64,000 nucleotides of DNA from Dehalococcoidia bacterium (GCA_965116945.1 OZ220734.1:158980-222979), one strand, 5' to 3'. Numbered from the stretch's first letter, positions 3,875 to 46,262 are shown. Translations and numbers: made by a program. The notes: generated by a model not told the origin, from the letters alone.

Positions 3875-3949
3875 GCGGGCGTAACTCAGCGGTAGAGTGT
3901 CTGCTTCCCAAGCAGGAGGTCGAGGGTTCGAATCCCTTCGCCCGCTCCA
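3875..3949 (+). tRNA. tRNA-Gly (anticodon CCC), CCA encoded
   Basis: A hand-folded 75-nt cloverleaf. Acceptor GCGGGCG/CGCCCGC, D stem ACTC/GAGT, anticodon stem TCTGC/GCAGG with loop TTCCCAA, T arm GAGGG-TTCGAAT-CCCTT, discriminator U, then CCA. Confidence 0.9.
3901..3949. repeat. attL core: 49-bp exact direct repeat, tRNA-Gly nt 28 to the 3' CCA
   Basis: ctgcttcccaagcaggaggtcgagggttcgaatcccttcgcccgctcca is identical base for base at 60611-60659. Confidence 0.85.
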
Positions 3950-4070: not shown

Positions 4071-5183
4071 TTGACTCGCAGACACTTCTCGTTGGGAGGA
4101 CAAGTAACTACCATGAACGGGCATCGATCCATACGTGCTGGCACAATGCAGAATTTCGATATTACGACGCTGATCAATCACTTCGAAGTGCACAACCGTA
4201 CCGAGGGGAAATCCCCCAGGACAGTTGGGTGGTACAACGAGGTCCTCGGGTTGTTCCTTGACTGGCTAACAAAGAACGGTCTATCGACGGGCCTTGACCA
4301 GATCGGGGAGCCCGAAGTGCGGAGCTTCGTGCTTCATCTTCAACAGACCCCCGGCCGAACCGGCAAGCCGCAATCATCGCACTCGATAAACAATCGTGTC
4401 AGGGCATTGCGAGCCTTCTTCGCCTGGATGGACAGGAAAGGGTTTACCGAGATAAATCGGCTGAAGGACATGCGGCCCCCGAAGACCGTGGAACGAGTGA
4501 TAGAGCCCCTCACGGAAGCCGAAATTAACGCCGTCCTAACCTCCATCAATGCCAGCACCGTTCTCGGATCCAGAAACTACGCTATTCTCTCCCTTATGCT
4601 AGACACCGGTCTACGTCTTTCGGAGACCGCAAACCTGATGACGGGCGATGTCCACCTGGAAGATCGCTACGTCAAGGTGCTGGGAAAGGGTTCGAAGGAG
4701 AGGTTTGTGGCTTTCGGAGCAGCATGTCAGAGATCACTCATCGATTACTCCATGCACTTCCGGGTTGAGCCAGCTCACGACCGCATAGTGGAGTATTTCC
4801 TTGGCATCGACGGATACCCGCTGAGCCCCGCCGGTGTAAAGTCGTTTATAACGAGAGTCGGCAGGTCCGCCGGGGTCCCCAGGCTACATCCCCACCTCCT
4901 GCGGCACACATATGCAACATCGTTCCTGATAAACGGTGGTGATGCGTTCCTGCTTAAGCAGAATCTCGGCCACAGCACCCTGTCAATGGTGGAGAACTAT
5001 CTGCACATCGCCAGCAGGCTCGCAGCGGTCAGGAGCCAGTCCTTTTCTCCCCTGGATCGATTGAACGTCCAGAGAGATAGACGCTTTAGACACGGTTTCA
5101 GGGGAGGCAAGGGCCGGAACGGGATGAATGGACGCATCTACCCCAACGCCGGGCGGGGGCGTTCGACATACGGCAGGTCATAG
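4071..5183 (+). CDS. Tyrosine site-specific integrase (XerC/D-phage integrase family)
   Basis: Catalytic R..HxxR..Y set visible: LDTGLRLSE, HPHLLRHTYATSF, LGHSTLSMVENYLH. N-terminal SAM-like core-binding region. Adjacent to tRNA/attL. The real start may be an internal Met at 4113 or 4146. Confidence 0.85.
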   Translation: MTRRHFSLGGQVTTMNGHRSIRAGTMQNFDITTLINHFEVHNRTEGKSPRTVGWYNEVLGLFLDWLTKNGLSTGLDQIGEPEVRSFVLHLQQTPGRTGKPQSSHSINNRVRALRAFFAWMDRKGFTEINRLKDMRPPKTVERVIEPLTEAEINAVLTSINASTVLGSRNYAILSLMLDTGLRLSETANLMTGDVHLEDRYVKVLGKGSKERFVAFGAACQRSLIDYSMHFRVEPAHDRIVEYFLGIDGYPLSPAGVKSFITRVGRSAGVPRLHPHLLRHTYATSFLINGGDAFLLKQNLGHSTLSMVENYLHIASRLAAVRSQSFSPLDRLNVQRDRRFRHGFRGGKGRNGMNGRIYPNAGRGRSTYGRS

Positions 5184-5472
5184 GAAGCTGCGTATTGAGC
5201 CTCCCCACTTCGGGCTAGTCGGCTGAAGGGTATTCGATCTTCCCAACACCGAGCGGGTATTCCACCATTTCGGTCAGATCGGCGACCTGCTCCATGCATT
5301 CGGCCTTCCTCGGATGTGCGGCGGTATCAACAGCCAATCCTTGAACCGTCAAACATTCGCTATCTTTCTACTGGATGAAGACGTAGCCGTATCCCATCCG
5401 ACAGTGTCGTTTCCTTAGCGATTCCGCGGCCTTCGTTCTGCGGTACCGTTGAACCACCAGGCGTTTCCAGGA

Positions 5473-5742
5473 TTAAGCGGGCCTACCCCGCCGTCTGAAA
5501 GGCGCGTACCCAGCAGACAACAGCAGCTCGTCCACATCGTCAATTTCCACGGCATCCGAGTTATGGGCGAGGGCGAACCCCAGCATCAGCACAACATCGC
5601 GGCTTGGGTTAGCTTTTTCGCCGGTCTCAAGCCTCAGGATGTAGGCCTGGTCTATTCCACTGTATTGGGCAACCCGGTACTTGGACTTCCGAGCCTTTTC
5701 TCGAAGCATCCTCAACTTCTCTGAAAATCTATTCATAGCCAC
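5473..5742 (-). CDS. XRE-family helix-turn-helix transcriptional regulator
   Basis: FSEKLRMLREKARKSKYRVAQYSGIDQAYILRLETGEKANPSRDVV is a classic HTH_3/Cro-CI pattern. 89 aa. Confidence 0.75.
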   Translation of the reverse strand: MAMNRFSEKLRMLREKARKSKYRVAQYSGIDQAYILRLETGEKANPSRDVVLMLGFALAHNSDAVEIDDVDELLLSAGYAPFRRRGRPA

Positions 5743-6958
5743 TCCATTTCGTATGTCATCCTCATGGGTGCCTGATTAGAATCTCGACTTCCATTTGAAG
5801 GAGGCGGTTACCCTCACTGTCTGTAACTAAAACCCTCTAGTTCGACCAAGTCCTTTCTGCCATAGGGACCTTTCTCCAAAAGAAAAAGCCGGTCACGGAC
5901 TGGCTGAATTATTTTCAGCCAAGGCCTAGCCGACTTGTCCAGAATCGCCTTCCCAAAAGGCGAACCGCGGCAGTCACATTGCCTGTGGTAGTGTGCTTGC
6001 CGACATTTAGGTGGCTAAGAAAGCGTACTCTGAAAAGCGTGACATGTCAATTAAGGAGCAAGACATAGAGTTATGAGCTCTGGTCTGGAAAGTGAGGCTT
6101 GCCCACGCCGCCTGTTTCAGCTAACTCTCTAATTCAACCAAATGCTTACTTTCAGAGAGACCCGATAAGGCAGACCGCCAGGCACGTGAGCGAGATGACA
6201 CCTGAGGAGGCGGAGAAGGCATCTTAGGGTGGCTACACGAGTCAGAGGCCGGTGTAAGGGACGCTTTGAAGGCAGTCTGGTCTGCATATTCCTGGTTGCT
6301 GAGTCAGGAGGCATGTCGAACATTGAGGGAGTCGCAGGAGGGCGATTGGATACCCGAACCCACACTAGGTTATCGAGCGGCCCCCTTTGCCGATGCGAGT
6401 GGGGAGCCGTCCAATGCCCGACCCCCTTGGTACCGGCCTAGTAATGCCTTCGGCAACTGCCCTTCGTTGTCACTGTCGGCCCCCGACCATCCGCTCGTTC
6501 CGTCTGCCTTTGCTTCGTTCCTTAGCTTCCGCCGCGAGAACGAGGCGAAAAGCCCGCTCATTTCATCCACCTAGCAACTACATCTATGGTCACACAAGTC
6601 ATAGGCAACTGCCCGTCAGCAGCGTATCGGTTCAAGTCTTCGAGAACTTCAGGCCGGACCGCAAGGTCCATGTGCTTCATCTCATCGGGGCTGAGGAATC
6701 CCAAAGCCTGAGCATAACCGCTTTGAACTCTCCCCCTTGCGAACCCCGGGCATACGTAGGGTTTACCCTACCCCCCTCCCCGTTTAAGAATGGGGGATAG
6801 CATCGCTGCCATTCCAATCTAGCTTTGTCGCAAGCCGTCACTTTCAAATGGACGCCCTTTGTTGTAAATGCTCGTTCATATATTTTCATAAACCCTACAG
6901 CCTTCCACCTAGCTTGTCCCAGAGGGAAGTGCAAAACTCCCTAATTGACCCAAACAGC

Positions 6959-6991
6959 AAGGCCCCCTGCCGACAGCGGCAAGGGGGCCTT
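6959..6991 (-). terminator. GC-rich hairpin just downstream of the 7014..7748 gene
   Basis: aaggccccctgcc-gaca-gcggcaagggggcctt forms a stem with one bulge. The U-tract on the minus strand is only weak. Confidence 0.4.
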
Positions 6992-7013
6992 CATTCGGCT
7001 TTCGTTGCCCTGT

Positions 7014-7748
7014 CTATGGGGTTGTCCCGCAGTTAGGACTCAATAGCTGATAGACAGCCAATAGTCGGGCATTCAACGCATCCTCTTTGGCAATCACGGA
7101 ATGGACATCTTCCCGTATGGCTATCCAGACGGCATCTGACAAGTCCTGTTCCCTTAACACCTCGATTATCTTGCCGTCCCGCCCTTCAGGGTCCGGAGGA
7201 ACCTCAAAGCCCTGACCTCTAAGGGATGCTGCCAGCCGCGTCATTGCAAGATTTTTGAGGCGAAGGGCATCATTTGCGTCATCGGTAGCGTCATATATCT
7301 CTCGGGCCTCGCTGGATGCGCCAGGAAGGATCACTAATTGCCGAGAATTAAGGCCGCTCCCAAGTTCAACTGTCATGTCGCCCGTAATGTCACCAGACAC
7401 CAACTCAAGGCCGTCAACAGCCGCTAGTTGACGGCTAATCCCCGGTGACCCTCCCATTTCTTCATAGCATCGGTCAATGGCAGTAAAGACTGGCGTCGGG
7501 CCGGTGGTCAGGTCCTCCCGCAAGTCTGACAATTCCTGTTGGGGCGGCATGGTAGGCGTGGGTATGGGGGTAGCGGTGGGTGTAGGTCTGGGGGTTGGAG
7601 TAGCGGTTGGCTGTGGAGTGGGGGTCGCGTTGGTGCAGGCCGTGATGATGACGATTATCCCCAATGACAAGATACTCCAAATGGCCTTTGCGCTAGTGCT
7701 CAAAATGGAACCCCCTTGTTGGCTGGTCGGGCTTGAGACACTTGCCAA
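7014..7748 (-). CDS. Putative lipoprotein/secreted protein with Pro-Thr-rich linker
   Basis: A hydrophobic N-terminal segment ends in IITAC (lipobox-like Cys), followed by TPTPQPTATPTPRPTPTATPIPTPT. No recognisable catalytic domain. Confidence 0.55.
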   Translation of the reverse strand: MASVSSPTSQQGGSILSTSAKAIWSILSLGIIVIITACTNATPTPQPTATPTPRPTPTATPIPTPTMPPQQELSDLREDLTTGPTPVFTAIDRCYEEMGGSPGISRQLAAVDGLELVSGDITGDMTVELGSGLNSRQLVILPGASSEAREIYDATDDANDALRLKNLAMTRLAASLRGQGFEVPPDPEGRDGKIIEVLREQDLSDAVWIAIREDVHSVIAKEDALNARLLAVYQLLSPNCGTTP

Positions 7749-7919: not shown

Positions 7920-8948
7920 TGACACCTAGAGTGATGTCATGATGAGGATAGTAGACGGAACAGTAAGCAGGGCAAAGGCATTAGGTAAGCAGAGGGATTT
8001 ATCCAGGGAGGGGAAACGGAGGTTGGCATGGTTTGACCATTACGAAGGGCACGGGCGGAATGCATCTCTAACGTGTCGTTACTTTGGGATAAGCCGGCAG
8101 ACCTTTTACAAGTGGAAGGGGAGGTACGATCGAAGGCGTCTGGAAAGCTTGGAAGGGAGGTCACCCCGGCCCCGGAGGGTGAGGCAGCCCACGTGGAGCA
8201 GGGAACTGGTGCGAGCTGTGCTGGAGATGAGGGAGGAAAGGCCCAGATTGGGTAAGGACAAGTTGGTAGTCCTGCTAAGGGAGAAGGGATGGGAAGTGTC
8301 CACGTCAATGGTGGGAAGGATACTGAAGGCGTTGAAGGATAGAGGAGTGTTGAGGGAGCCGCCGATCAACGGGGTATCGGCCCGCAAGAGGATGCGCCAA
8401 CGCCCCTATGCGGTGCGCAAGCCTAAAGGATATAGCGTGGCCGAGCCGGGGGACCTGGTAGAGGTGGTCACCCTGGACCTGAGGCCTCTGCCTGGGGTGA
8501 TACTGAAGCACTTTACCGCCAGGGACCTGAGCAGCCGCTGGGATGTGATAGGGGTGTACACCCGGGCCACCGCCGTAACGGCCACGTCCTTCCTGGGGCA
8601 GGTGAGGGAGAGGATGCCCTTCAAGGTCAGTGCCATACAGGTAGATGGAGGCAGCGAGTTCTATGCCCAATTCGAAGATACCTGCAAGGAGTTGGGCATA
8701 CGCCTCTTCGTACTTCCTCCCCGCTCTCCCAAGCTCAATGGTCATGTGGAAAGAGCCCAGCGTACCCACACGGAGGAGTTCTATGAGATCTACGACGGCG
8801 ATCTCGATATGGCCTCTCTCAACCATGCCCTTCGCAACGGGAGAAGGTCTACAATACCATCCGACCTCACCAGTCCCTCGGCTACCTCACCCCCCTTCAG
8901 TTCCTACGACAAAACTACACCCTAAAGAAGAACCTTGTGTGTCACTAA
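7920..8948 (+). mobile_element. IS481-family-like insertion sequence (about 1 kb)
   Basis: A single DDE/rve transposase gene. Short terminal inverted match TGACAC (7920-7925) / GTGTCA (8939-8944). Boundaries are approximate. Confidence 0.5.
7939..8948 (+). pseudogene. IS481-type DDE transposase, frameshifted near codon ~300
   Basis: N-terminal HTH, then the rve core (HFTARDLSSRWDVIG ... IQVDGGSEF ... PRSPKLNGHVERAQRT). The conserved C-terminus EKVYNTIRPHQSLGYLTPLQFL is read in a different frame from about 8838 (stop at 8946-8948), while the annotated frame runs on to 8925. Confidence 0.7.
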
Positions 8949-9108
8949 TCTGCTGGACTAGTACATCCACTTGTTGCCCCGTTGGGAACCACGTAGAATC
9001 CAACGGACTGCGAGAATTTACATACCCTAGGTGGATTGTTACAAGTAACACCCTACTTTGAGACAAAAACACTAAAGCCCTTGGCCAACCAATATAGCCT
9101 TCAGGCAA

Positions 9109-11403
9109 TTGAATGGCACAAGAGCATGGGCGAGGACAATCAACAGTCATAGGAGTGATTCAGTGGCGCGAGCGTTTGTCACATACTCACATAAGGATTC
9201 GGAATTCGTGGATCAGTTGGTAACCGACCTCGAGAGTTCGGCTCTGGCTTTGGTATTCGACAAACGGATATTGCACCCAGGAGATTCGCTGCTGACAATT
9301 TTTGAAGAGATCAGCACAGTTGATTTCTTGTTGGTGGTGCTGTCGCCACATTCAGTGGAGAGTAACTGGGTTCAGAAAGAACTCTCGACGGCAGTAGTTA
9401 GAGAAATCGAAGATTCGGGCTTCAAAATCGTCCCTATTGTCAAGGAACGCTGCGAGCTGCCTCAGGGTTTGAAGCAAGCATTGTTAGACAAATACCATGC
9501 CCGGTTTCATGATAGAGAGTATGAAGAGGTCGTGAAGGAGATTCTGCAAACTCTTTCTGCACCCAACGACGCAAGAGATTTGTATTCTGAGTTTCAAGGG
9601 GTGTCTAGTGACAACCCATTCCGACGTGTCAGAGCTGAGCATTTTGAGAATATCAGTACACTTGCTCGGTCTTATTCTGAACCTGAGGCTGCCCGATACG
9701 AGCGAATAGTCGAGACGAAGCCTGTCCTTCTAGAAGGCGGCAGAGGGTCTGGCAAGACGATGACCCTGAAATCGATGCTCCCCCAAGCTCTGATTTCACG
9801 CCACGGCCAAAGTAGGCTAGACGAGACGAATGTCACCTACCTTGGCGTCTACCTTCGTTTTGTTCCGGGGTCTTTTGCGACGCAGGAACAAACAATCGAA
9901 GAGATTGTTGGCAAGAACCGCTGCATCAAGTTGTTCTTGACAGAGACGATCCTCAAATTGACATACGCGTTAGTGGAAGAGCTCCAATCTTGTGCCCAGG
10001 CAGGTGTGGTCCAAGCAACAAGTGCGCAAGAACGCCAGTTCGTATCTGAAGTCGCATATATCATCAGGCCATCCACGCCCAACGAACCAAAGATGACAAC
10101 ACTCGCTGATCTAACAGGATCGTTGTCTCGTGAGATGCGGTTCATTGTCGACTACGTGAGCCGTCGGATCTTCGGAGAAGACCGAAAATACGAAGGAGTG
10201 TTCCTTGGTATCGAAGACTTGAAACGTATCTGTCGCGCTTCAGTAACTACCTACCTGGCAAAGCCTGGGACGACAGTCTATTTCCTGTTGGATGAATTTG
10301 AGAATCTTCTGGCTTTCCAGAAAGTGGTTACGAATAGCATTCTCAAGGCCAGCGAGGCCGGACACTATTCAGTAAAAATAGCTACAAAAAAAGCTGCTCT
10401 GACAACATCGGAGACTCTAGAGGGGCAGGAGATTGAAGAACCACATGACTATTCTTCGGTTGATGTTGACTATAACCTCTCTGATGATCAAGAGCGTCGC
10501 TACTACAAGCAGCTATTGACCACGATCTGTTCGCGTATCCTGTCTCATGAGAGATTCAGAGAAACAGACATCGACAAGATGCTAGAGCCTCCGCTTGAAT
10601 GGGATGGCTTGGAAAGAGAGGATCTTGATAAGGAGATGGCTTTGGTGTACGGGTGTCGCCAGTTGACAGATGAAGACCGCCACAGATTAGGACATGCTGC
10701 CGTCTATAGATTGCTTCACCAAGGCGGACGTAGAAGGAAACAATTCTCAGGTTTTGATGATCTGGCCACTCTTTCGTCCGGAATAATCAGACTCTTTCTA
10801 GAGCTGGCCGGCCTATCCTATCATTTTGCCGTGCAAGAAGGGATTGATGTGAGGAGAGGACAGCCTATCGGTCGTGGCAACCAAACCAACGCAGCATATG
10901 CCCTATCAGACTATTACCTGACGACTATCAGGAATAATGTGGCTACCGTTGGGCCTAAGATTCAACAGCTTGTGATTGACTTAGGCGACATCTTTCGGGC
11001 GAAACTGCTTAAGCATAACAGTGAGCCAGAAGGCGCTCGTTTGGCCATCCATGATCCACATCGGCTAGAAGAGCCAGCTTCTAGGGACGCCAGAGCAGTG
11101 TTGACTCAAGCTGTTATTCACTCAGTCTTTCAGAATCCCTCTCGTCGAGGTGGAATGCGGCCTAAACACGTTACCGACGTTCAGCCTCAGGAGTTTATCC
11201 TCAATCGAGTCTATAGTCCCAGCCTCGCGATTTCGCCGCGGTCTAGGTGGCGAACACGGATGAGCACAGATGACCTGCTTGGGCTCATGGATCCGCTCCT
11301 TCGACAGAGTACCAAGTCAAGATTGACACGACTTGCGAGTGGTTCGCCTACGGGTGGGTCTGATTCCCTGCAATCAGAATTCCCTCTGGAGGCTGAATCA
11401 TGA
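9109..11403 (+). CDS. TIR domain fused to a P-loop NTPase (ORC/AAA-like) with a large C-terminal region
   Basis: TIR: AFVTYSHKDSEFVDQLVTDLE ... ILHPGDSL ... LLVVLSPHSVESNWVQKEL (conserved Glu present). Walker A LEGGRGSGKTMTLKS. Walker B VYFLLDEFENL. The likely true start is GTG 9163, preceded by AGGAG (9151-9155). Confidence 0.75.
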   Translation: MNGTRAWARTINSHRSDSVARAFVTYSHKDSEFVDQLVTDLESSALALVFDKRILHPGDSLLTIFEEISTVDFLLVVLSPHSVESNWVQKELSTAVVREIEDSGFKIVPIVKERCELPQGLKQALLDKYHARFHDREYEEVVKEILQTLSAPNDARDLYSEFQGVSSDNPFRRVRAEHFENISTLARSYSEPEAARYERIVETKPVLLEGGRGSGKTMTLKSMLPQALISRHGQSRLDETNVTYLGVYLRFVPGSFATQEQTIEEIVGKNRCIKLFLTETILKLTYALVEELQSCAQAGVVQATSAQERQFVSEVAYIIRPSTPNEPKMTTLADLTGSLSREMRFIVDYVSRRIFGEDRKYEGVFLGIEDLKRICRASVTTYLAKPGTTVYFLLDEFENLLAFQKVVTNSILKASEAGHYSVKIATKKAALTTSETLEGQEIEEPHDYSSVDVDYNLSDDQERRYYKQLLTTICSRILSHERFRETDIDKMLEPPLEWDGLEREDLDKEMALVYGCRQLTDEDRHRLGHAAVYRLLHQGGRRRKQFSGFDDLATLSSGIIRLFLELAGLSYHFAVQEGIDVRRGQPIGRGNQTNAAYALSDYYLTTIRNNVATVGPKIQQLVIDLGDIFRAKLLKHNSEPEGARLAIHDPHRLEEPASRDARAVLTQAVIHSVFQNPSRRGGMRPKHVTDVQPQEFILNRVYSPSLAISPRSRWRTRMSTDDLLGLMDPLLRQSTKSRLTRLASGSPTGGSDSLQSEFPLEAES

Positions 11404-12359
11404 GGAGCGGGACGATTCGGCAATTGACATCACTGAAGCCCACAGTCGAGGGGCAAACAGAAGTCTTCATAGGGTGCGCTAGTTTTGAAGATCGATGTTT
11501 GGGCGTGCTCAGTTTGATGGCGCCAGATCATCGGTTTGACCATAGTTTTCTCTGTGTCTATGACGACTTCAGTGAAGCCAGGCGGACAAATGTCAAGACT
11601 ATGACAGAATCGCTCAAGGCACACGGTCCCTTGAGCGTACTCGACGCCTCGGAGGAGAATCCCTCGCGGTCAATTGCGGAGTTGCTGACACAAGTTCGCG
11701 CCATAGTGTCAAGATCGGGGGCTAGAGTCACTCTGGACATATCTACATTTACGAAACGGCACCTCTTGCTCTTGTTGCATGGTCTAGACGACGCAGGCAT
11801 ATGGGATTCACTTAGGATTCTCTACACCGAGCCTAAAGAGTACGTTGTTGACATGTACGTCCCCATGTCTATGGGAATCAAGGAGGTAGCACCTATCCCT
11901 ACTTTCACTAATCTAAGGCCTTCGGACAAGCCCGTCCTACTAGTGATCATGCTCGGGTATGAAGGTGATAGAGCGATGGCCTTATTCCAATCCATCGAAC
12001 CTAACGAAACGATGCTCTTAGTACCTAAGCCTGCGTATAGGCCCGAGTGGGAGGGGCGAACCGAGGAGCTCAACAACCAGCTAGTCACACTCTTAGGCGA
12101 AGATTCTATAGCCTATGCTGACTCTCGGGATCCTGTTCAGGTGAAGACTGCCTTAGGCAGCATTCTGGGCACTCGCTATCCGACAAAGGACTGGACTTGT
12201 TTGGTTTCGCCGTTAGGGACGAAACCTCAAACTGTAGGCCTCTATTGCTTTTGGCGGGAGAATCCTGACTCCTGCGCGGTTGTTTATGCGCAACCCCTAA
12301 AGCACAATGAAAGATATTACTCTATGGGCTCGGGCCCGACATGGGAGCTAGGAAATTGA
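11400..12359 (+). CDS. Hypothetical protein (319 aa), middle gene of the TIR-ATPase/methylase operon
   Basis: ATGA overlap with the upstream gene. Its stop overlaps the ATG of the methylase (TGATG). The internal pattern GCASFEDRCLGV / LGYEGDRAMAL suggests a duplicated alpha/beta fold. A possible hhhD...ExK element is VTLDIS ... ILYTEPK. Confidence 0.6.
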   Translation: MRSGTIRQLTSLKPTVEGQTEVFIGCASFEDRCLGVLSLMAPDHRFDHSFLCVYDDFSEARRTNVKTMTESLKAHGPLSVLDASEENPSRSIAELLTQVRAIVSRSGARVTLDISTFTKRHLLLLLHGLDDAGIWDSLRILYTEPKEYVVDMYVPMSMGIKEVAPIPTFTNLRPSDKPVLLVIMLGYEGDRAMALFQSIEPNETMLLVPKPAYRPEWEGRTEELNNQLVTLLGEDSIAYADSRDPVQVKTALGSILGTRYPTKDWTCLVSPLGTKPQTVGLYCFWRENPDSCAVVYAQPLKHNERYYSMGSGPTWELGN

Positions 12360-13618
12360 TGGGATGCTCCCAGACTATTGACCCGCAGCCGATAAATCTG
12401 AAGTATCGATCTGGTGTCATGCTTGATGGAGTGTCGAGGCGACTTCATCGGCTAGACAAATACCCCGCAAAAATGATCCCCCACATGGCGAGATTTCTGA
12501 TAGAAAGGGTATCCGAACCAGGGGATACCGTCTTGGACCCCTTTTGCGGCACGGGAACAGTAGTGCGTGAAGCGATCGCGCTCACTCGCAATGCCATAGG
12601 ACTTGATGCCAATCCGCTAGCCACACTCTTCACTCGAGCAAAGGTAGGGTGCTACTCTCGGGTTCTGTTGGAGCAACAATTGGCAGAGCTCTTGGAGTCA
12701 TTCAAAGCCGAAACGACCACTCACGTCCTGACGTTTCCAAACGCAGAATACTGGTTCACTCCAGCGACTCTACGAAAATTGGGAATCATTCGCTCAACTC
12801 TAGACTGCCTGTCCCAACAGCTACCAGGACCTTATCCTGACTTCTGGCGTGCCGTGCTAGCGTCTATTGTTCGTCAGTCAAGTAGAGCGGACACGCGAGG
12901 TCCCAAACCCTTCATCTCGAGACATGCTCGCGAGAGTCGAGTGGGAAAACATTTCGACCCATTCAAGTTGTTTGCCAGTGCTGCCGAGGCTCGGATAGAG
13001 TTGCTGACCGGAAAGGGCAGTAATTTAGGCTACTGCCACGCGGAAGTGATAGACGGTAATGCCAAGAAACTACCTATTAGCATGAGTTCAACTCGTGTCG
13101 ATGCGGTTGTGACATCTCCTCCGTACCTAAACGCCCAAGACTACTACAGATCCTGCAAGCTAGAACTGTGGATTGTTGGACTCCTTGGGCTGGATGCAAA
13201 CAAGAAGTGGGCACGGGATGATCTGATAGGAAGTGACAGAATTCCAATTGACCGACACTTGTTCGACCTTCCAATGCCTTCGCCTACGAGTCAAGCTGCG
13301 AGGGCGAGTCTAGTTTCGATTAATCCGAAGAGCGCGTGCGTTTTGACCAGATATACCTTGGATATGGCTACTGTCCTTTCTCAAATAAGACAAGTCCTGA
13401 AACCCGGGGGCCACTTTGCATTGGTCTCAGGAGACAACACTCTTTCCAGCATTCCGATTCTAACCCACGATATTATCACTGAACTCGCATTGAGTTTAGG
13501 CTTCCAGCTAAAACATCACTATGTAGACGCCATTCGGGATCGATGGGTACCTCCTTCCCGTAATGGCCACAACGGAATGATCCTTAATGATCACATACAA
13601 ATCTTCCAGACACCCTAG
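12341..13618 (+). CDS. SAM-dependent DNA methyltransferase (N6-adenine/N4-cytosine type)
   Basis: Motif I VLDPFCGTGTVVREA comes about 190 aa before motif IV VVTSPPYLNAQDY. YPAKMIPHM lies N-terminal. The ATG at 12359 overlaps the upstream stop and is the more likely start. Confidence 0.8.
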   Translation: MGARKLMGCSQTIDPQPINLKYRSGVMLDGVSRRLHRLDKYPAKMIPHMARFLIERVSEPGDTVLDPFCGTGTVVREAIALTRNAIGLDANPLATLFTRAKVGCYSRVLLEQQLAELLESFKAETTTHVLTFPNAEYWFTPATLRKLGIIRSTLDCLSQQLPGPYPDFWRAVLASIVRQSSRADTRGPKPFISRHARESRVGKHFDPFKLFASAAEARIELLTGKGSNLGYCHAEVIDGNAKKLPISMSSTRVDAVVTSPPYLNAQDYYRSCKLELWIVGLLGLDANKKWARDDLIGSDRIPIDRHLFDLPMPSPTSQAARASLVSINPKSACVLTRYTLDMATVLSQIRQVLKPGGHFALVSGDNTLSSIPILTHDIITELALSLGFQLKHHYVDAIRDRWVPPSRNGHNGMILNDHIQIFQTP

Positions 13619-14193: not shown

Positions 14194-16572
14194 TCACTCC
14201 GATCCTGCCATCTCGTATGCTAGGACACCGAACTCGTCGTATTCTTGTTCCTCGTAGTATTGACGCGGCTCCTTGCCTTCCACCGAGAGTTCTTGGAGTC
14301 GGTTATCAGATTGCATCCCGCCTGCTATGAGAGCATCTCTCAGGGCCTCGTCGGAGTCGCCGAGGTTTTTTCCCATCGCCCTGCCGACCATTTCGAGCAT
14401 TGCTTTGCCTCTACACATGAAAAATGTTGGGAAATCGTCTTCTTCCAGTATTCGCGTGTCAAGGAGGTGAGTGTATAGAATGTCTTCGAGGTTATTGGCT
14501 ACGCTTTGGGCTCTAAGCCTTGGGAGGTAGGAGGAGGGTGCATTGCCACCTATTATCCTGTTGGTAGAGGCGTCCACCAGCGTCCGATTAATGATGGAGT
14601 TGTATAGCCTGCTTGGAATGCGCGAGTCCTTACACCATGGTATGGGGAAAATGTGGTGGATGTCGATGTTCTTGTCCAAACAGTGGACGATGCCGAGCGG
14701 TGATCCGCTCATCCAGTCGGATGCGCCGTTTTTCATGAGGAGGGCATAGAGCCCCTTGTAGGCTGCGCTGCTCCTTGATCTCAGGTTGATAATCCGCTGC
14801 GGGGCGAAGGTTGCTTCCAAAACGGTGTTCGGTATGATGCCTTCCCGGACATACCTTGTGACTTCCTGCATGTCCTGTTCAGCCCGGGTTTCTGCATTGC
14901 TAGCGTATTGCTCTCCAAAAACACCACTCCAGTACCAGCGTTCTAGCCTACTCTTGGCGATTGCTGAGTTGAGCTCTTCCTCCAATTCTACGTGAAGTGC
15001 CGCTAGGGGGATTATCTGGGCTGTGTAGGGCACGTCTTTCTGCTTGAACACATACTGGGTTTGCAAGTATTCGGCTGCTCGAATAAATCCCTGTTCTGTT
15101 CTGTCCGACCAGTTTCGGTAATCGGCTACTGTCAGGTTCAGAACGTCTCTCCTCTTGCGGCTCACGCTAGGTGCTCGGATTTCCGGTATCCCCGCTGCTA
15201 TGGCCTGTTTGCGGTCTTCAAAGGACTTGAGCAGGCTTATAGTCTGCAGGAAGTGGTCTCCTTGAATACCCTGCAGAGTTCCGGCAAATGAGTACATTCT
15301 TTCCTTACGGTCTTCCCAGTCGTCTTTAAGAGAGAATGTCTCGGTATCGCAGGCAAAAGATGCAGCTTTGAGTTCGAAGACGTTAAGTGCGACACCGCTT
15401 GTGTTCATCTTTTCGAATACTGTGCATACTGCTTCCATGGATGTGTCTTGGTCCAGTGCGATCAACGGCAACTGATATTCGTTGAAGTTTCCAATTATCG
15501 ATTCTTCAAACCGCTTGAAACACCTGAACGGATTTCCGAATGGATGGGGTTCATTGGAGCGTTCCCAGTATTGGATGTACCCGGTGGCCCACTTCAATGG
15601 GTCCATTAGTGTCTCGGTCGGAATCAAGTGATTCTGGTACTCGAAGTGCGATGTGCATAGGTCTTGCACTTCCAGCTCGTGATCGGTAACGCTAGCGGCA
15701 AGGAGATTATCGGGCATTGACACCAACAGATCCCCACGGCCTATGTTAGGGTCGATTCCGGCCATTATGTTCATGTAATATCGGAGCTTTATCGGCTGGT
15801 TAAGGCTGTCACGAGTATTGACGGGTCCCGGGTGCCGAAGGGCCTGATAGAGGGACGTCAGCCTTTGCTGGCCGTCCAGTAGGAACATATCCGGCTTATC
15901 GTTTGACCTGATTTCCGCGCCTTCTATGGGACGCGTCTTGAAAGCGACGTTGCCTCCTGCAGTGAGGCCTAAGATGGCCCCGATGGGAAACATGTTGGAT
16001 ATGCTGACGAGCAGGTCTTTTATCCGTTCATCGTCCCATACCCAGCTTCGCTGGAAGTCGGGGAGTTGGATTTTGCCGTTGTCCATGTCGTCAAGCAAGT
16101 CTTTGAGTAAAACCGGGTTAGTCATGAACGTTGCTCTGCTTCGGCCGCCACTCCCTGCATCCATGATATTGATTTTGCTGTCTTGATTAGGCCGTTCGGT
16201 TGTTACCGGTCGACTGGAATGATCCTCTTTTTCGATATCGAACCGTAAGAGATAGTAGCCACTCTCTGGCATATCTTCGGTTATTACCAGGGGCGAAACC
16301 TGTTTCTCTAGTTCGATCGTTTCGGTTTCGACACCGATCCTTGTCTTGTACCACTCTCCGTTGGGTGCAGTCATCATCAGAGATCGCAGGTCTATGCGTC
16401 CCGCTTTGAACTCAATTAATGCCTCTTCCTCGACGGGAGCTATCTTGTATTCGGAACCTGTTTCGTATTCTCCGTCGTGTACGGCGATATATTTGCGTCC
16501 TTGACGGTCCTTTGCTGCAAAAAGAACATCGCAATCGTAAAACTGAAGCGTCTCTGTGTGAGTCACTATCAT
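14194..16572 (-). CDS. GmrSD-family type IV restriction-like enzyme (DUF262 + DUF1524) with a ~160-aa N-terminal extension
   Basis: DUF262: IQLPDFQRSWVWDDERIKDLLVSI and LLDGQQRLTSL. DUF1524 HNH-like: DIHHIFP ... NRTLVDASTNRIIGGNAPS. Confidence 0.85.
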   Translation of the reverse strand: MIVTHTETLQFYDCDVLFAAKDRQGRKYIAVHDGEYETGSEYKIAPVEEEALIEFKAGRIDLRSLMMTAPNGEWYKTRIGVETETIELEKQVSPLVITEDMPESGYYLLRFDIEKEDHSSRPVTTERPNQDSKINIMDAGSGGRSRATFMTNPVLLKDLLDDMDNGKIQLPDFQRSWVWDDERIKDLLVSISNMFPIGAILGLTAGGNVAFKTRPIEGAEIRSNDKPDMFLLDGQQRLTSLYQALRHPGPVNTRDSLNQPIKLRYYMNIMAGIDPNIGRGDLLVSMPDNLLAASVTDHELEVQDLCTSHFEYQNHLIPTETLMDPLKWATGYIQYWERSNEPHPFGNPFRCFKRFEESIIGNFNEYQLPLIALDQDTSMEAVCTVFEKMNTSGVALNVFELKAASFACDTETFSLKDDWEDRKERMYSFAGTLQGIQGDHFLQTISLLKSFEDRKQAIAAGIPEIRAPSVSRKRRDVLNLTVADYRNWSDRTEQGFIRAAEYLQTQYVFKQKDVPYTAQIIPLAALHVELEEELNSAIAKSRLERWYWSGVFGEQYASNAETRAEQDMQEVTRYVREGIIPNTVLEATFAPQRIINLRSRSSAAYKGLYALLMKNGASDWMSGSPLGIVHCLDKNIDIHHIFPIPWCKDSRIPSRLYNSIINRTLVDASTNRIIGGNAPSSYLPRLRAQSVANNLEDILYTHLLDTRILEEDDFPTFFMCRGKAMLEMVGRAMGKNLGDSDEALRDALIAGGMQSDNRLQELSVEGKEPRQYYEEQEYDEFGVLAYEMAGSE

Positions 16573-16955
16573 GGCACTATCCTACAGTTAGCGACCGGAT
16601 CGAAGTCTTTCATAGGCCACCATGTTTGGTGTCCGTCTTCTTCCTCTGGGTTGAGCTTCCCTGCCCCAGGGGTTAAGGTCAGTTCTCCGATGTTCTTCCA
16701 CCGACCATTTCGGTTCAATGGTCCCTCGAATAGTGTTTTGGCCGCATCAAGATTGGCAAAAAGGGACACCCCGTTCTGCTCGCATGGTGTCCTCTCTGAG
16801 TGGTCGTTAGGGCTTCCCTTCCTGTGGACATACGAATAAAAGTCTGATTCTTGAGCTTCGTCCCCTTCCACTAGCCTGTACTTTAGAGTCGGATTTTGAA
16901 TTTCCTGCGCGGTATCGGGTGGGCATCCCGCCGGAAGTGCCTCTCTAAATTCCAA
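16569..16955 (-). CDS. Small hypothetical protein (128 aa), translationally coupled to the GmrSD-like gene
   Basis: ATGA overlap at 16569-16572. TTG start with GGAG about 10 nt upstream and a stop codon immediately upstream in frame. No recognisable domain. Confidence 0.55.
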   Translation of the reverse strand: MEFREALPAGCPPDTAQEIQNPTLKYRLVEGDEAQESDFYSYVHRKGSPNDHSERTPCEQNGVSLFANLDAAKTLFEGPLNRNGRWKNIGELTLTPGAGKLNPEEEDGHQTWWPMKDFDPVANCRIVP

Positions 16956-18549: not shown

Positions 18550-20994
18550 CTACGATTCCTCAGTTTCCACCGTCTCGCCCTTGGGCATCCGGTAGCCGAC
18601 GCCGCGCTCGGCGAATATGTAGGTGGGGGTTTCGGCGTCATCGCCCAGCTTCTGGCGCATGTGTTTCACGTGGGAGCGCAGCACCCGCATGTTCCCCGGC
18701 TTGCCCGGACTCCACGCCCTCCTCAGCAGCCGGTCGTGGGGCACCACCTGCCCGGCCTCCATGGAGAGCGCCGCCAGCAGGTCGAACTCGGTGGGCGTCA
18801 CCTGCACTGGTCGCCCCGATACCATCACCCTGCGTGCGCCGTAGTCGATGCGCAGATCGCCCAGCACGAAGGGCTCCTCCGGGGCCGGGAGGCCGGGTTC
18901 CCCGAACCGGCGCAGGGCCGCCCTCACCCTGGCCACCAGCTCCGTCGGCGAGAAGGGCTTGACGATGTAGTCCGTCGCCCCCTTCTCCAGCGCCCTGGCC
19001 ACCACCTCGTCCCTGCCCTGCACCGACAGGAAGATGACCGGGATGCGGGAGATGGCCAGGATGTCCCCCATCAGCTCCTCCCCGTCGCGCTCCGGCAGCA
19101 TCAGGTCCAGCAGCGCCAGGCGGGGGCTGTGCTCGCCCATCAGCGCCAGCGCCTCCTCCGGGTCCGCCGTCACCACCGAGCGGAAGCCCGCCGTCGAGAG
19201 GACGTCCCTCACGGAGCGGAGCACCTGCGGGTCGTCGTCCACCACCAGCACTGTTCCGGCGTGCTGCCCGCCGTCCTGGGAGCGGGCGCGGCCACGGGCC
19301 GGTTCGGGCTCCTGCACGGCCGGCAGGGTGAAGACGAACCGCGCCCCCAGACCAGGCCCGTCGCTCTCGGCGTGGATGCGGCCCCCGTGGGCCTCCACTA
19401 TCCCCTTGCAGATGGCGAGGCCCAGGCCGGTATCGCCCGCCTGCTCCTCGGACTGCACCCTGGAGAACTTGCGGAACAGCTGCGGCAGGTCGTCGGCGGG
19501 TATCCCCCGCCCCTCGTCGGCCACCGACACCTCGACGTGACCGCCCTCCTCCCGCACGGCGGCCACCCGGATGACGGACGACTCCGGGGAGTTCCTGGCC
19601 GCGTTGGACAGCAGGTTGCCGATGACCTGGGCGATGCGCCGCCGGTCGGCCATCACCAGGGGCAGGTCCTTCCCCACGTAGATCTCCAGGGTGTTCCTGC
19701 CCCCTGCGCTGGTGAAAGCGTTGCGGGCACGGTCCACCAGCACGGCCACCTCAGCCGGTTCCGGGTCCACCGGCAGCGCGCCCGTCTCGATGCGGGCCAC
19801 GTCCAGCAGATCGCCGATCTGGGTGCGCATGCTGCCCACCTGGTCGAGGATGATGCGCAGGAACTGGCGCATCTCGGGGTCGAGGTCCGGCGCCGACTCC
19901 ATCATCGCCATCACCGAGCCCCAGATGGAGGTCAGCGGCATCCGCAGCTCGTGGCTCACCATCCCCAGGAACTCCGCCCGCAGCCGCTCCTGCTCCTCCA
20001 CCGCCGTCATGTCCTGCATCGTGACCACCACCGACTCCACCTCCCCGTCATCCGAGCGGATGGGCGTGGCGTTGAGCAGCACGGTCACGCTCCGCCCGTC
20101 GGGGACGCCCATGACGATCTCCTCGGCCCGCACCGTCTTGGCATCGCCCAGGACACGGGCCAGGGGAAACTCCCGCAGCGAGACCTCGCTCCCGTCGGCG
20201 CGGCGCACGGTCAGCAGCCCCAGCAGGTCCTGCGGCGTCTGGCCGGAGTCCCGCAGCCCTTCGACGATCCTGCGGGCCTCCGGGTTGAAGGACGCCCCTG
20301 TCCCCGTCCTAATGTCGAAGACGACCACGCCCACCGGCGTGGTGTCGATGAGCGTTTGAAGGCCCGCCCTCGCCCGCTGCTCCTCCCGGTGCCGCCGGGC
20401 GTTGGCGATGACCAGCGCCGCCTGGGAGGCGAACATCACCAGCGTCTCCTCGTCCTCCCGCGTGAACTCCCGGCCCGGCTCGCCGTGCCCCACGTACAGG
20501 TGGCCGGCACGCAGGCCCTGGTGGAGCAGGGGCGCCGCCATGAACGCCGTGAGCTTCACCGGCGAGCGGAACTCCCCGAAGCCGATGGACGCGGTGAACT
20601 CCTCCAGGTGGCCTATTCTCAGCGGCCCCGGCACGGCGTTCAGGTACCCGAACAGCTTCTCCCCCTCGGGGGCCTGCCACAACCGCTCCACGTCGGCGGG
20701 GTCGAAGCCCAGCACCAGGTGGTCGTCCACCGCGCCCGAATCGTCCAGGGTGATGATGGCGGCGTAGGGCGCGTGCGTCAGGGAGCGGGCGGACTCCATC
20801 ACGGCCTGGAGCGCCGCGTCCACGTCCAGGCTCTCGTTGATGCGCAGGCTGGCCGCGCTCAGGAGTGAGAGGCGGCCCGACGAGGGCTCCGTACTCCGTG
20901 GTTGCCGGTCGGCGTTCTCCAACTTTCGCCTCCTTGAAGCGGGCCTGTTTGGGGCAATTCTAGCAAAATACCCCGAAATACACCATAAGTACAT
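18550..20994 (-). CDS. Hybrid sensor: GAF-PAS-histidine kinase-receiver-OmpR/PhoB winged-helix in one polypeptide
   Basis: H-box SHELRMPLTSI, N-box NLLSNAARNSP, G1 DEGRGIP, G2 GLGLAICKGIVEAHGG. REC VLVVDDDPQV ... LLDLMLPERDG. Trans_reg_C TPTEFDLL ... RGVGYRM. The N-terminal start is uncertain. Confidence 0.85.
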   Translation of the reverse strand: MYLWCISGYFARIAPNRPASRRRKLENADRQPRSTEPSSGRLSLLSAASLRINESLDVDAALQAVMESARSLTHAPYAAIITLDDSGAVDDHLVLGFDPADVERLWQAPEGEKLFGYLNAVPGPLRIGHLEEFTASIGFGEFRSPVKLTAFMAAPLLHQGLRAGHLYVGHGEPGREFTREDEETLVMFASQAALVIANARRHREEQRARAGLQTLIDTTPVGVVVFDIRTGTGASFNPEARRIVEGLRDSGQTPQDLLGLLTVRRADGSEVSLREFPLARVLGDAKTVRAEEIVMGVPDGRSVTVLLNATPIRSDDGEVESVVVTMQDMTAVEEQERLRAEFLGMVSHELRMPLTSIWGSVMAMMESAPDLDPEMRQFLRIILDQVGSMRTQIGDLLDVARIETGALPVDPEPAEVAVLVDRARNAFTSAGGRNTLEIYVGKDLPLVMADRRRIAQVIGNLLSNAARNSPESSVIRVAAVREEGGHVEVSVADEGRGIPADDLPQLFRKFSRVQSEEQAGDTGLGLAICKGIVEAHGGRIHAESDGPGLGARFVFTLPAVQEPEPARGRARSQDGGQHAGTVLVVDDDPQVLRSVRDVLSTAGFRSVVTADPEEALALMGEHSPRLALLDLMLPERDGEELMGDILAISRIPVIFLSVQGRDEVVARALEKGATDYIVKPFSPTELVARVRAALRRFGEPGLPAPEEPFVLGDLRIDYGARRVMVSGRPVQVTPTEFDLLAALSMEAGQVVPHDRLLRRAWSPGKPGNMRVLRSHVKHMRQKLGDDAETPTYIFAERGVGYRMPKGETVETEES

Positions 20995-36100: not shown

Positions 36101-36123
36101 ATTTGTACTATCGCCTGCCTTCT

Positions 36124-37587: not shown

Positions 37588-37603
37588 CTTCCAACGTGTC
37601 GCC

Positions 37604-40600: not shown

Positions 40601-40750
40601 TTCGCCCGGTACAAGAGGGAGCTTGGTAACCACGTACTCTTGGCTAGGGGAGTCGTCTCCCGACATGACGGCACCACCAATGTTACCCTGTCCAGCGTGA
40701 AGACGTTGGACGTCGGGACCCGAATGCCTGCCGCCCACGACTGGCATTGA
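37604..40750 (+). CDS. dnaE2: Error-prone DNA polymerase III alpha-type subunit DnaE2
   Basis: N-terminal PHP YTELHLKSFYSFGMGASH. Pol III alpha core motifs (DIDLDF, IRPGV, HAFAVTAY). C-terminal OB fold. About 1050 aa, without the beta/tau-binding tail length of DnaE1. ATG 37604 follows the imuB stop (37585-37587). Confidence 0.9.
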   Translation: MTASYTELHLKSFYSFGMGASHTHEMLAQAREHGYGTLALTDTNLCGALEFARLAGSLDIRPITGGELTLTDGTRLVLLARTRRGYANLSRLFTLANAVDRREPRLDPVHLAHHSEGLVLLTGGREGPVSRLLLDGRRGEAGALLKEYMEWHGPDSVYVELQRNFLEGDNDLVRDSVSLAREMGVPLVASNDVHYHDPKRYRLQHSLVAARLNTTMEQALSHIRPNHHLHLKSPSQMTELFSDFPEGLSNSLRIAEKCEFNLASDLGYTLPEPAVPSGYTADSYLKRLCSEAAQRRYGAVTPEVEARLEEEFLLIGRHKLAGFLLLYREIVLLAQKIMEEKGLAHPEMPLEERPPGRGRGSSVALLVGYLIGISHVDPLRWGLTLERFIPEDMTTLPDIDLDFPRALRDELIECVHRHFGPEFAVLAGAVSTYSVKGIIQDLGKALGLPKEDLRMLSKQLHSHDARDLKGEMLELPAFREKVDAPGWRDLLQLAPQLMNAPRSLGQHVGGMILSDSPLPEMVPIRESAIQGRYIMDWNKDSTADAGFAKIDLLSLPVLDQIEEALDLVEQREGSRPDISAIDPEDNGVYEMLSEGRSKGVFLLQSPAQLKMGQRLRPRNLLDLAYQVALIRPGVGVQGSAVSKFVDRYRHGVEWDYDHPLERRALERGYGIIVWQEQVVQLISDVAGMKTSEADEIRRAFARPNSAHLIAMHRRRFLEGALANGVPRDIAERIFEKINGHYMFPESHSHAFAVTAYQAAWLKSHHPLEFFVALMNSQPMGFYPMETVKEDARRFGVPFLNPCMNRSGVNCIPEKDSVLLGLGKVRDVGEESAKLIVQERERHGPYSGAGDLVRRTGLKTQTVHSLVMAGAFDGVTPNRREALWDAGLPVRPPRNGQRAMPVSAAASIPELPDFTDKEKMAGEYTVMGIYPRGHVMEFVRPTLPSNVFCAADIDSLPEGERVLVAGWPVARQHPRGMEGTVFVTIEDETGDVQLIVWPRVFARYKRELGNHVLLARGVVSRHDGTTNVTLSSVKTLDVGTRMPAAHDWH

Positions 40751-41462: not shown

Positions 41463-41681
41463 GATTCAGTGGTGATGCAAGTGCCATAGCAGGAATTACT
41501 AATACGGCATTTTCGATGCACCAGCAGCAGTTGCTCTTTCCCTGGAGGACGGTCATGCCCGCAGAGCTGATGAAGCCAAGAGTTCACACGCGCCAGCATC
41601 AGTCGGCAACCAGATCTCAATACAGCTGGGTAATAACCCTTGAGAAAGAATGAGTCCAAAACATACAATTGCAGAAGAGAG

Positions 41682-43625: not shown

Positions 43626-43626
43626 T

Positions 43627-46112: not shown

Positions 46113-46262
46113 GACTATCCGCTATTCCTCCTGGTTGCCACCTCTCCCTGTGACGGACCGAACTGCATTATAGAAGGTTGCAGTACATCAACGGAGCCAT
46201 TTTCATCGAGCTGCAAGCAGATGTGCTATGTATTGGGACCGAATGACTTATGGAGAAACCGA

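Follow-up and report, generated by a model that had tools for sequence, protein, structure and literature searches.

A 64,000-nucleotide stretch of the genome of a Dehalococcoidia bacterium (GCA_965116945.1, OZ220734.1:158980-222979; hereafter the window) contains a cassette of three intact, translationally coupled genes, P1, P2 and P3, which is very probably an uncharacterised anti-virus defence system. P1 fuses a TIR domain to an ORC/Cdc6-like AAA+ ATPase, P2 belongs to a catalogued family of CARF-like proteins, and P3 is an SPPY-type DNA methyltransferase. We tentatively favour a reading in which these three components, spread by horizontal transfer, form a methylation-linked abortive-infection system whose trigger is unmethylated invading DNA.

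Three intact and translationally coupled genes

The cassette occupies positions 9163-13618 on the plus strand (Table 1), and all three proteins are full length compared with their homologues. The open frame of P1 extends over 9109-11403, with a TGA stop at 11401-11403. The first-pass annotation of this DNA had placed the start of P1 at TTG 9109, which is too far upstream: translation almost certainly begins at GTG 9163, because the database gene call of an identical protein is 746 amino acids long, the homologues in an alignment of 53 sequences start at the equivalent position, and an AGGAG lies 7 nucleotides 5' of this codon. Both overlaps described previously were found exactly as reported, ATGA at 11400-11403 (P2 start ATG 11400, P1 stop TGA 11401-11403) and TGATG at 12357-12361 (P2 stop TGA 12357-12359, P3 start ATG 12359), and so was every one of the motifs WVQKEL, GGRGSGKT, FLLDEFE and SPPY. 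A GGAGG lies 7 nucleotides 5' of the P2 ATG. For P3 we prefer ATG 12359 over the in-frame ATG 12341, because the former has an AGGA 5 nucleotides upstream. The guanine plus cytosine (GC) content of the cassette is 50%, compared with 57% for the whole window.

The cassette is conserved as a unit in bacteria and archaea

The first-pass annotation had allowed that the methylase might be an orphan lying by chance next to its neighbours, or that the TIR-ATPase might act alone. We scanned 73 loci, taken from one genome per species and designated by L and a number, with purpose-built hidden Markov models (HMMs) of the TIR domain, the ATPase, the C-terminal domain of P1, P2 and the methylase. Approximately 60 non-redundant loci share the order ATPase-P2-methylase, and their hosts span over 15 bacterial phyla as well as 5 or more archaeal lineages. 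The order is present throughout Chloroflexota and Acidobacteriota, the nearest relatives (80% and 71% identity) coming from Dehalococcoidia/Chloroflexota, and also in Verrucomicrobiota, Planctomycetota, Nitrospirota, Nitrospinota, Latescibacterota and Hydrogenedentota. Further carriers belong to Spirochaetota, Bacteroidota, Pseudomonadota, Myxococcota, Actinomycetota, Armatimonadota, Binatia and Clostridia, and the archaeal ones to Methanoregula, Methanomassiliicoccales, Bathyarchaeia, Thermococci and Nitrososphaeria. Carriers in culture include Prosthecobacter fluviatilis KACC 12649 (L033) and Planctomicrobium sp. SH661 (L037). Even three P2 homologues with 43-49% identity, from Methanoregula, Methanomassiliicoccales and Pyrinomonadaceae, are each flanked by a TIR/PF24389 gene on one side and an N6_N4_Mtase gene on the other.

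Coupling is conserved along with gene order. Stop and start codons of the P1 and P2 homologues overlap by 4 nucleotides in 24 of 62 non-redundant loci, and those of the P2 and P3 homologues by 1 or 4 nucleotides in 27 of 44. The identities of the P1, P2 and P3 homologues to the window proteins are correlated with each other (Spearman 0.56-0.68, p<=2e-5), and the flanking genes are unrelated from locus to locus. The cassette moves and evolves as one unit. The recurring order and the coupling rule out an orphan methylase placed there by chance, and the TIR-ATPase was never found without P2 among the loci examined.

Several long open reading frames (ORFs) required separate consideration. An apparent 858-residue fusion involving P2 in L042 is an artefact, with insertion sequence (IS) copies lying between the cassette genes. 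Two copies of a single IS, with a 481-residue transposase, are located at 6285-7730 (between ATPase and P2) and 8886-10331 (between P2 and methylase), and they have probably inactivated this cassette. A 1241-residue ATPase-P2 ORF in L023 is probably a read-through of a damaged locus. A database protein of 643 residues, P0281, in which the C-terminal part of P2 is fused to an N6_N4 methylase, could be a true fusion or a frameshift artefact.

P1 combines a TIR domain with an ORC/Cdc6-like ATPase

Pfam searches bore out the earlier description of P1 as a TIR domain followed by a P-loop ATPase, with matches to TIR_2 (1.2e-16) and to the ORC-CDC6-like family PF24389 (1.7e-70; 238.8 bits against a gathering cutoff of 27; residues 169-493). 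In Foldseek searches with the AlphaFold model of P1 (predicted local distance difference test, pLDDT, 85), the top match is the plant TIR-NLR (nucleotide-binding leucine-rich-repeat) protein RPP1, followed by ORC/Cdc6 proteins and the TIR domains of known NAD+-hydrolysing enzymes (NADases).

At the sequence level, the TIR domain matches PdTIR, TcpB, AbTIR and Cat1. At the level of fold, it aligns with the TIR domains of AbTir, SARM1 and MyD88 with template modelling (TM) scores of 0.6-0.8, and its Foldseek matches include the NADases AbTir, SARM1, SPARTA and Cat1. The catalytic-type glutamate (E73 in the 746-residue numbering) is kept in at least 90% of the 53 P1 homologues, and Walker A (G192-K198) and Walker B (D377/E378) are invariant among them. 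Bacterial and plant TIR domains require oligomerisation for NAD+ hydrolysis.

When the AAA+ module was compared with the PDB by sequence and profile, the similarity detected was at the level of the P-loop only; by fold, it resembles yeast ORC, archaeal Cdc6/Orc1, NtrC-type AAA+ proteins and RdrA, with Foldseek probabilities of 0.93-0.99 for ORC1, ORC4 and Cdc6. The C-terminal domain, for which we built a separate HMM, is present in each ATPase of the family and may be a partner- or DNA-binding module. With its modelled likeness to RPP1, ORC/Cdc6 and TIR proteins and its conserved glutamate and Walker motifs, P1 looks like an effector-NTPase switch.

P2, a predicted tandem CARF-like protein

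The 319-residue product of the second gene had been listed as unknown; it is in fact a member of a catalogued CARF family and is predicted to have a tandem-CARF fold. P2 matches eleven CARF6--CARF_CARF_CARF models of PADLOC-DB, the best with an E-value of 6.4e-33 over residues 16-311. The CARF6 label is said to originate from the CARF census of Makarova et al. 2020. A Pfam scan of the window gave no match for P2, some homologues produced only faint matches to PF23400 (CARF_Card1), and sequence and profile searches of the PDB with P2 found nothing. The AlphaFold model (pLDDT 91.9) consists of two Rossmann-like halves in a single chain. Foldseek aligns approximately 135-150 residues of it with the CARF domains of Csm6, Cam1, Csa3 and Card1 (probability 1.0), at modest E-values of 2.5e-4 to 1e-3, and Can1, which has two CARF domains in one chain, also matches the model (TMq 0.53). 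Comparison of the N- and C-terminal halves with hhalign revealed no sequence similarity (probability 2%).

The invariant residues of the family (E30/R32/G35, D113/K119/H121, G186-E188/R191 and K275/Q277/G280) fall in the loops that follow strands 21-27, 109-113, 179-184 and 266-271. Based on the profile matches and the model, P2 is a putative ligand sensor or adaptor of the CARF6 family, and membership in a CARF family would make ligand sensing central to the cassette. Cyclic oligoadenylates produced by type III CRISPR systems are the known ligands of CARF domains. No Cas10, mCpol or CD-NTase gene was found near P2, either in the Pfam-annotated loci L001-L005 or among the 25 commonest families of flanking genes (128 ORFs from approximately 50 loci).

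The P2 family is large. A word-indexed search collected 398 homologues, and an exhaustive search of cluster representatives from a library of 1.8 billion proteins identified 201, 1478 and 2969 clusters at E<=1e-30, 1e-10 and 1e-3, respectively. Nearly all members are stand-alone proteins of 310-345 residues.

P3 is an SPPY-type methyltransferase

The assignment of P3 as an SPPY-type DNA methylase held: it matches Pfam N6_N4_Mtase (PF01555, 4.4e-18) and, over its full length, the PADLOC model MTase_II (2.6e-36). Motif I (DPFCGTGT) is followed by an insert of approximately 190 residues and then by motif IV (TSPPY), and SPPY is kept in all 61 members of the methylase family that we collected. The SPPY motif is typical of N4-cytosine (m4C) methyltransferases, which suggests that P3 makes m4C rather than N6-methyladenine (m6A). 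Among solved structures, the one nearest in sequence belongs to a DNA cytosine-N4 methyltransferase and is matched in the motif I region alone. PADLOC matches of P3 are confined to methylase models, including weak ones to mad2 (5e-12, motif I region) and mad8 (1.1e-3).

Effector and methylase are exchangeable around a constant core

The ATPase and P2 form an invariant core and are the sole pair of genes universal to the loci. The effector slot is occupied by an N-terminal TIR domain in approximately 45 loci. In four others (L050, L051, L053 and L062) its place is taken by a helical head of 210-250 residues with a hydrophobic first helix, which is unrelated to TIR and gave no family match. In L061, L063 and L065 the ATPase is N-terminal and is followed by approximately 330 extra residues containing two TIR-like/nucleoside-deoxyribosyltransferase-like repeats, with weak matches to CAP12-PCTIR_TIR (0.005-0.04). 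Finally, in L067-L078, L080 and L081, which include plasmids of Moraxella osloensis and Burkholderia gladioli, a plain ATPase is preceded by a separate PRTase-CE gene; PF24390 matches at approximately 1e-61 in L070 and L078, and the remaining loci were assigned to this variant by homology to L070. The PF24389 model fits the ATPase of the PRTase clade over its full length (8e-125 in L070), so the consecutive Pfam entries PF24389 and PF24390 probably derive from this clade. Names with the suffix -CE reportedly come from Nicastro et al. 2023.

Because relatives with PF24389 use a separate PRTase-CE in place of TIR, the TIR domain is best viewed as a swappable effector, and the exchange of modules beside a constant ATPase and P2 is the pattern expected of an effector and not of a signal generator. 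We have therefore down-weighted signal generation by TIR. A Thoeris-like scheme built on it, in which the TIR domain of P1 (or PRTase-CE) would make a nucleotide messenger once the ATPase has sensed infection and P2 would relay this signal as a CARF receptor, seems to us very unlikely. Such a scheme could draw on the cADPR-type (cyclic ADP-ribose) signals that TIR domains produce in Thoeris, on weak matches of the P1 TIR domain to ThsB models (PADLOC, 6.5e-5), on the role of CARF domains as messenger receptors, and on the fact that the neighbourhoods surveyed above contain no other messenger synthase. It fits poorly with a P2 that has no effector domain and no conserved downstream effector gene, and with the replacement of TIR by unrelated modules, one of them helical and non-enzymatic in appearance, while P2 remains; it also leaves the methylase unexplained.

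The methylase slot varies as well. NPPF-type methylases unrelated to P3 (gamma-class, N6A-like) fill it in three loci of the PRTase-CE variant, L069 (4396-5706), L075 (6063-8861) and the Moraxella osloensis plasmid pNP7-2 (L080, 2147-7670). The pNP7-2 operon consists of genes for a dUTPase, a PRTase-CE-like protein, the ATPase, a P2-like protein and the methylase, and an IS3 transposase separates it from genes for a PfkB kinase and QueC located a few kb further downstream. In the Nitrosopumilus locus L057, in which no SPPY methylase is present, the genes after the cassette (at 9216-12490) encode a 521-residue protein, a methylase of the C5-cytosine type and an endonuclease resembling Vsr, and are probably a separate restriction-modification (R-M) system. 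Judging from these sequences, the link between methylase and cassette is functional, because unrelated NPPF-type enzymes take the same slot and because P2 is joined to a methylase in P0281.

A tentative mechanism and its competitors

In the reading that we tentatively favour, P3 would write a methyl mark, probably m4C, on host DNA. P1 would act as an NLR-like switch, its ORC/Cdc6-type AAA+ module and C-terminal domain remaining monomeric or inactive in the absence of infection, and P2, supplied in stoichiometric amounts by the coupled operon, would gate the passage of an infection cue to P1. The trigger may be unmethylated DNA or a nucleotide ligand, and we prefer the former: incoming DNA without the mark would be read by a P3-P2-P1 complex, as by Mod in type III R-M or PglX in BREX (bacteriophage exclusion). 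The cue would allow ATP-dependent oligomerisation of P1, which would bring the TIR domains together and lead to hydrolysis of NAD+, so that the cell is stopped or killed before the viral cycle is complete. Epigenetic self-marking would thus be linked to abortive infection. We favour this reading because methylase-linked systems such as BREX and Ssp tell self from non-self, and because of the effector swapping and the non-orthologous displacement of the methylase. The conserved gene order and coupling, the correlated divergence of the three proteins, the switch-like make-up of P1 and the mobile, defence-rich surroundings also speak for it. BrxC and SspC, moreover, are ORC/Cdc6-clade ATPases of modification-dependent defence (PMC12839542, PMC10853773).

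Several observations weigh against this interpretation. The invariant polar residues of P2 sit in the canonical ligand loops of CARF domains (after beta1 and beta4 of each half); this suggests a small-molecule ligand, because an adaptor role alone leaves these residues unexplained. No methylase was found in seven of approximately 65 loci (L013, L014, L045, L057, L067, L068 and L081), and their survival is difficult to accommodate because, with unmethylated DNA as the trigger, unmethylated self DNA would be lethal; in three of the four methylase-less loci of the TIR clade (L014, L045 and L057), however, the TIR match is weak or missing or the ATPase is split. For a region that would determine specificity, the part of the methylases between motifs I and IV shows unusually high conservation. 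The C-terminal domain of P1, a mere candidate for DNA binding, gave no match at E<=10 when its profile was searched against the PDB, and a scan for promoters and terminators gave no signal above chance. In the literature we found no experimental study of any member and no description of the triad, although an earlier computational description is possible.

The P2 pocket and the methylase-less loci are both accommodated by a different scheme, in which the methylase writes the precursor of a danger signal and not a protective mark. Host DNA marked by P3 would be degraded by phage, and the released methylated deoxynucleotides, for example N4-methyl-dCMP, would bind P2 and activate P1 and its TIR domain. 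We consider this methylome-derived alarm unlikely. It assigns a role to every part of the cassette, tolerates exchange between methylase families, and would fit the conserved methylase insert as a sign of fixed chemistry; genes of deoxypyrimidine nucleotide metabolism (ThyA, ThyX, dUTPase, dCMP deaminase and NT5C) are recurrent direct neighbours of the cassette, some of them operonic. There is also a precedent: PUA-Cal-HAD responds to m6-dAMP set free when Dam-methylated DNA is degraded (preprint 10.64898/2026.01.15.699771). This precedent, however, is a single one and uses a different sensor fold (PUA). P2 would also need to co-vary with both m4C-type and m6A-type methylases, and the known ligands of CARF domains are cyclic oligoadenylates, not mononucleotides. 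An extended form of this idea, a self-contained circuit that both writes and reads the alarm, in which the methylase would place a rare mark on host DNA, a released N4-methyl-dCMP-type ligand would license TIR assembly via P2 and the thymidylate-type neighbours would clear background signal, we regard as quite unlikely.

Alternatively, gating might be independent of any mark, with P2 sensing a modified nucleotide made by phage or a cyclic oligonucleotide of the host and the methylase merely travelling along, for instance to protect a mobile element. The universality of the ATPase-P2 pair and the occurrence of loci without methylase are in line with this possibility, and according to the abstract of Nicastro et al. 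2023, some -CE effector systems reportedly sense modified phage nucleotides. Against it stand the translational coupling between P2 and methylase that most loci show, the entry of non-homologous methylases into this slot on at least two occasions, and the P2-methylase fusion P0281; we consider this reading unlikely.

Genomic context

The cassette lies within a mobile island of a defence-rich region. Features of the island are listed in Table 1; the tRNA was the only match in an Rfam scan of the window. GC content is approximately 0.59 in the left flank, 0.48-0.55 from approximately 3.5 to 18.2 kb and approximately 0.70 thereafter. The jump to 0.70 coincides with a hybrid histidine kinase/response regulator at 18550-20994, and the window as a whole is compositionally mosaic. 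The transposase gene ends approximately 240 bp upstream of P1. The GmrSD_N protein encoded convergently with the cassette resembles a type IV restriction enzyme in its domain content and probably works independently of the cassette.

Table 1. Features of the cassette and of the surrounding island (window coordinates).
Feature	Position	Strand	Description
P1	9163..11403	+	746 amino acids; TIR, ORC/Cdc6-like AAA+ ATPase, conserved C-terminal domain
TIR domain of P1	9163..9582	+	Putative NADase effector; catalytic-type Glu in WVQKEL
AAA+ P-loop module of P1	9610..10602	+	Walker A GGRGSGKT, Walker B LLDEFE
C-terminal domain of P1	10603..11400	+	Approximately 265 amino acids, mostly helical; invariant SEPEA and ISPRxRWR motifs
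P2	11400..12359	+	319 amino acids; start ATG 11400, stop TGA 12357-12359
P3	12359..13618	+	419 amino acids (425 from in-frame ATG 12341)
tRNA-Gly(CCC)	3875-3949	+	Probable island boundary
Tyrosine integrase	4071-5183	+	Phage_integrase 2.3e-28
IS-type transposase	7939..8925	+	HTH + rve
GmrSD_N/DUF262-type protein	14194..16572	-	792 amino acids; N-terminal DUF6575; GmrSD_N 1.5e-28; PADLOC PDC-M55C 5.5e-27

Defence and mobility genes are also found around other members: type I R-M, BrxL, ABC-3C, zeta toxin and DarTG-like genes occur as neighbours, as do integrases, and some members are carried on plasmids. This setting raises the question of whether the cassette is an addiction module, that is, an epigenetic toxin-antitoxin of mobile elements in which loss of the methylase frees TIR toxicity and which has no primary antiviral role. 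R-M systems are known to act in this way, the cassette is found on plasmids and on integrase-bearing islands, and in L004 and L008 the cassette together with a thyA gene adjoins the remnant of another thyA. Most loci, however, are chromosomal and have no recognisable mobility genes within 8 kb, and the mechanism would be common to this explanation and to the one we prefer, so that defence is not excluded by it. As an account of the cassette's primary function, addiction appears improbable to a high degree.

Thymidylate-synthesis genes flank the cassette directly in at least 10 loci, in the form of ThyX, the non-homologous ThyA, or dUTPase, and Thymidylat_synt is the commonest Pfam family of the 128 flanking ORFs; L005 additionally has dCMP deaminase and NT5C beside the cassette. 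These genes are located at 5180-5797 in L005/L015, 10194-10823 in L063, 8541-9554 in L070, 8678-9911 in L077, 10253-11047 in L004/L010, 6574-7368 in L008, 10191-10985 in L024, 4494-5411 in L051, 6316-6777 in L072 and 2147-2812 in L080. Several are on the same strand as the adjacent cassette gene, at distances of -11 to +15 nucleotides. The window itself contains no thymidylate-synthesis gene. The association could be that of a functional accessory or the effect of cargo or integration. The thyA remnants of L004 (3558-3953) and L008 (1281-1742) are diverged, correspond to the 3' third of the gene and lie on the opposite side of the cassette from the full-length thyA; in these loci, cassette and thyA may have replaced part of a resident thyA.

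Elsewhere in the window, the region of approximately 1.8 kb that separates the integrase from the next plausible gene (5200-7000) contains nothing but short ORFs overlapping one another on the two strands; it may be decayed sequence of the island or non-coding DNA. A 128-residue ORF without a family match (16569-16955) is located just upstream of the GmrSD_N gene. An Ssp-type phosphorothioate cluster at 41640-48578 includes SspE (6e-229, 46221-48578), an SspD-like/PDC-M33C protein (44481-46112) and PDC-M33A (41640-43625). The genes at 36103-40750, first an ImuB-like polymerase of the Y family with an IMS domain and then a Pol III alpha of the DnaE2 type, resemble a "mutasome" cassette for error-prone synthesis. 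A 2598-residue ORF at 21338-29134, in a region of 70% GC, is overlapped by antisense ORFs of 1324 and 826 residues and has no PADLOC match.

Significance of the cassette

The combination of a cyclase-less CARF protein, an ORC-like switch, a TIR domain and a methylase is unusual. P2 represents a large stand-alone CARF family that has no cyclase partner in the neighbourhoods surveyed and is instead accompanied constantly by an ORC-like ATPase and, in most cases, by a DNA methylase; its ligand, once found, would extend CARF signalling beyond CRISPR. Should the circuit of written and read alarm prove true, CARF would serve as the sensor of a non-cyclic, methylome-derived nucleotide, with no cyclase involved. 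The cassette, only 4.5 kb in size, could couple an epigenetic mark to an NAD+-depleting suicide effector, a third outcome of methylation-based immunity beside restriction and BREX-type exclusion, and its spread over archaea and bacteria gives it a bearing on the deep evolutionary past of TIR/NLR-type immunity.

Comparison with known systems

As the first-pass annotation had supposed, the combination does not correspond to a named system: no system definition of PADLOC v2 fits, there is no NCBIfam name, and the RefSeq relatives that we inspected are all hypothetical proteins. The parts are catalogued (the PADLOC CARF6 models and PF24389), and the whole is unnamed.

Similarities with several defence systems are nevertheless apparent. 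With BREX and Ssp the cassette shares the pairing of a DNA-modifying enzyme with an ORC/Cdc6-clade ATPase in the absence of a classical restriction nuclease (PMC12839542, PMC10853773), but it lacks PglZ, BrxA/B/L and the Dnd/Ssp sulfur-transfer genes and has TIR and CARF in addition; a PADLOC scan of P1 gave no BREX or Ssp match. We rejected membership in BREX, in MADS (methylation-associated defence system) and in classical R-M systems, since PglZ/BrxA/B/L, mad1-8 and a restriction nuclease are missing and the operon has no further genes. The similarity to MADS or Hma is limited to generic methylase and P-loop similarity, and these assignments were rejected as well.

TIR-NLR/STAND proteins (Avs, bNACHT) have the same succession of effector, NTPase switch and C-terminal module. 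The NTPase of P1, in contrast, is PF24389, without NACHT or NB-ARC in the Pfam scan, its 265-residue C-terminal domain is not a repeat domain, and it has P2 and the methylase as constant partners. The PADLOC TIR-NLR model covers only residues 21-112 of P1, that is, the TIR domain (E-value 0.002). In the absence of NACHT/NB-ARC and of a repeat sensor, STAND TIR-NLR membership was rejected.

Thoeris likewise has a ThsB-related TIR (by weak matches) and is centred on NAD+, whereas here the TIR domain forms one protein with an ATPase, the place of SLOG is taken by a CARF-like protein, and a methylase is present; Thoeris membership was rejected because neither the cassette nor its conserved neighbourhood contains ThsA (SIR2, Macro or TM with SLOG). 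Cat1 and TIR-SAVED also combine a CARF-type sensor with an assembly-dependent TIR NADase, and the TIR domain of P1 matches that of Cat1 by both sequence and fold. In our cassette, however, the sensor and the TIR domain belong to different proteins and an AAA+ ATPase comes between the two, the operon includes a methylase, and no Cas10, CD-NTase or other cyclase was found near it in the loci and flanking families surveyed. For lack of a cyclase, a role as CRISPR or CBASS (cyclic oligonucleotide-based antiphage signalling system) accessory was rejected. PUA-Cal-HAD would resemble the cassette, hypothetically, in sensing through a nucleotide pocket, in using an effector that degrades nucleotides or NAD and in depending on DNA methylation; it differs in sensor fold and effectors and in relying on the Dam methylase of the host, whereas the cassette has its own methylase.

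The closest relatives are the PRTase-CE/ORC-CDC6-like/CARF6 cassettes (PF24390 plus PF24389), which are themselves known from prediction only. Both have the same ATPase family (PF24389 at 1.7e-70 in the window and 8e-125 in L070), the same P2 family (CARF6 models, up to 9e-96 in L070), coupling of the ATPase and P2 genes and, often, the same SPPY methylase family. They differ in gene order, which is methylase-PRTase-ATPase-P2 in the relatives and ATPase-P2-methylase in the window, and in the effector: no PRTase-CE (PF24390) homologue is present within the 64-kb window, and in place of a separate PRTase-CE gene a TIR domain is fused to the N-terminus of the ATPase. The window thus carries the TIR-fused variant of these cassettes.

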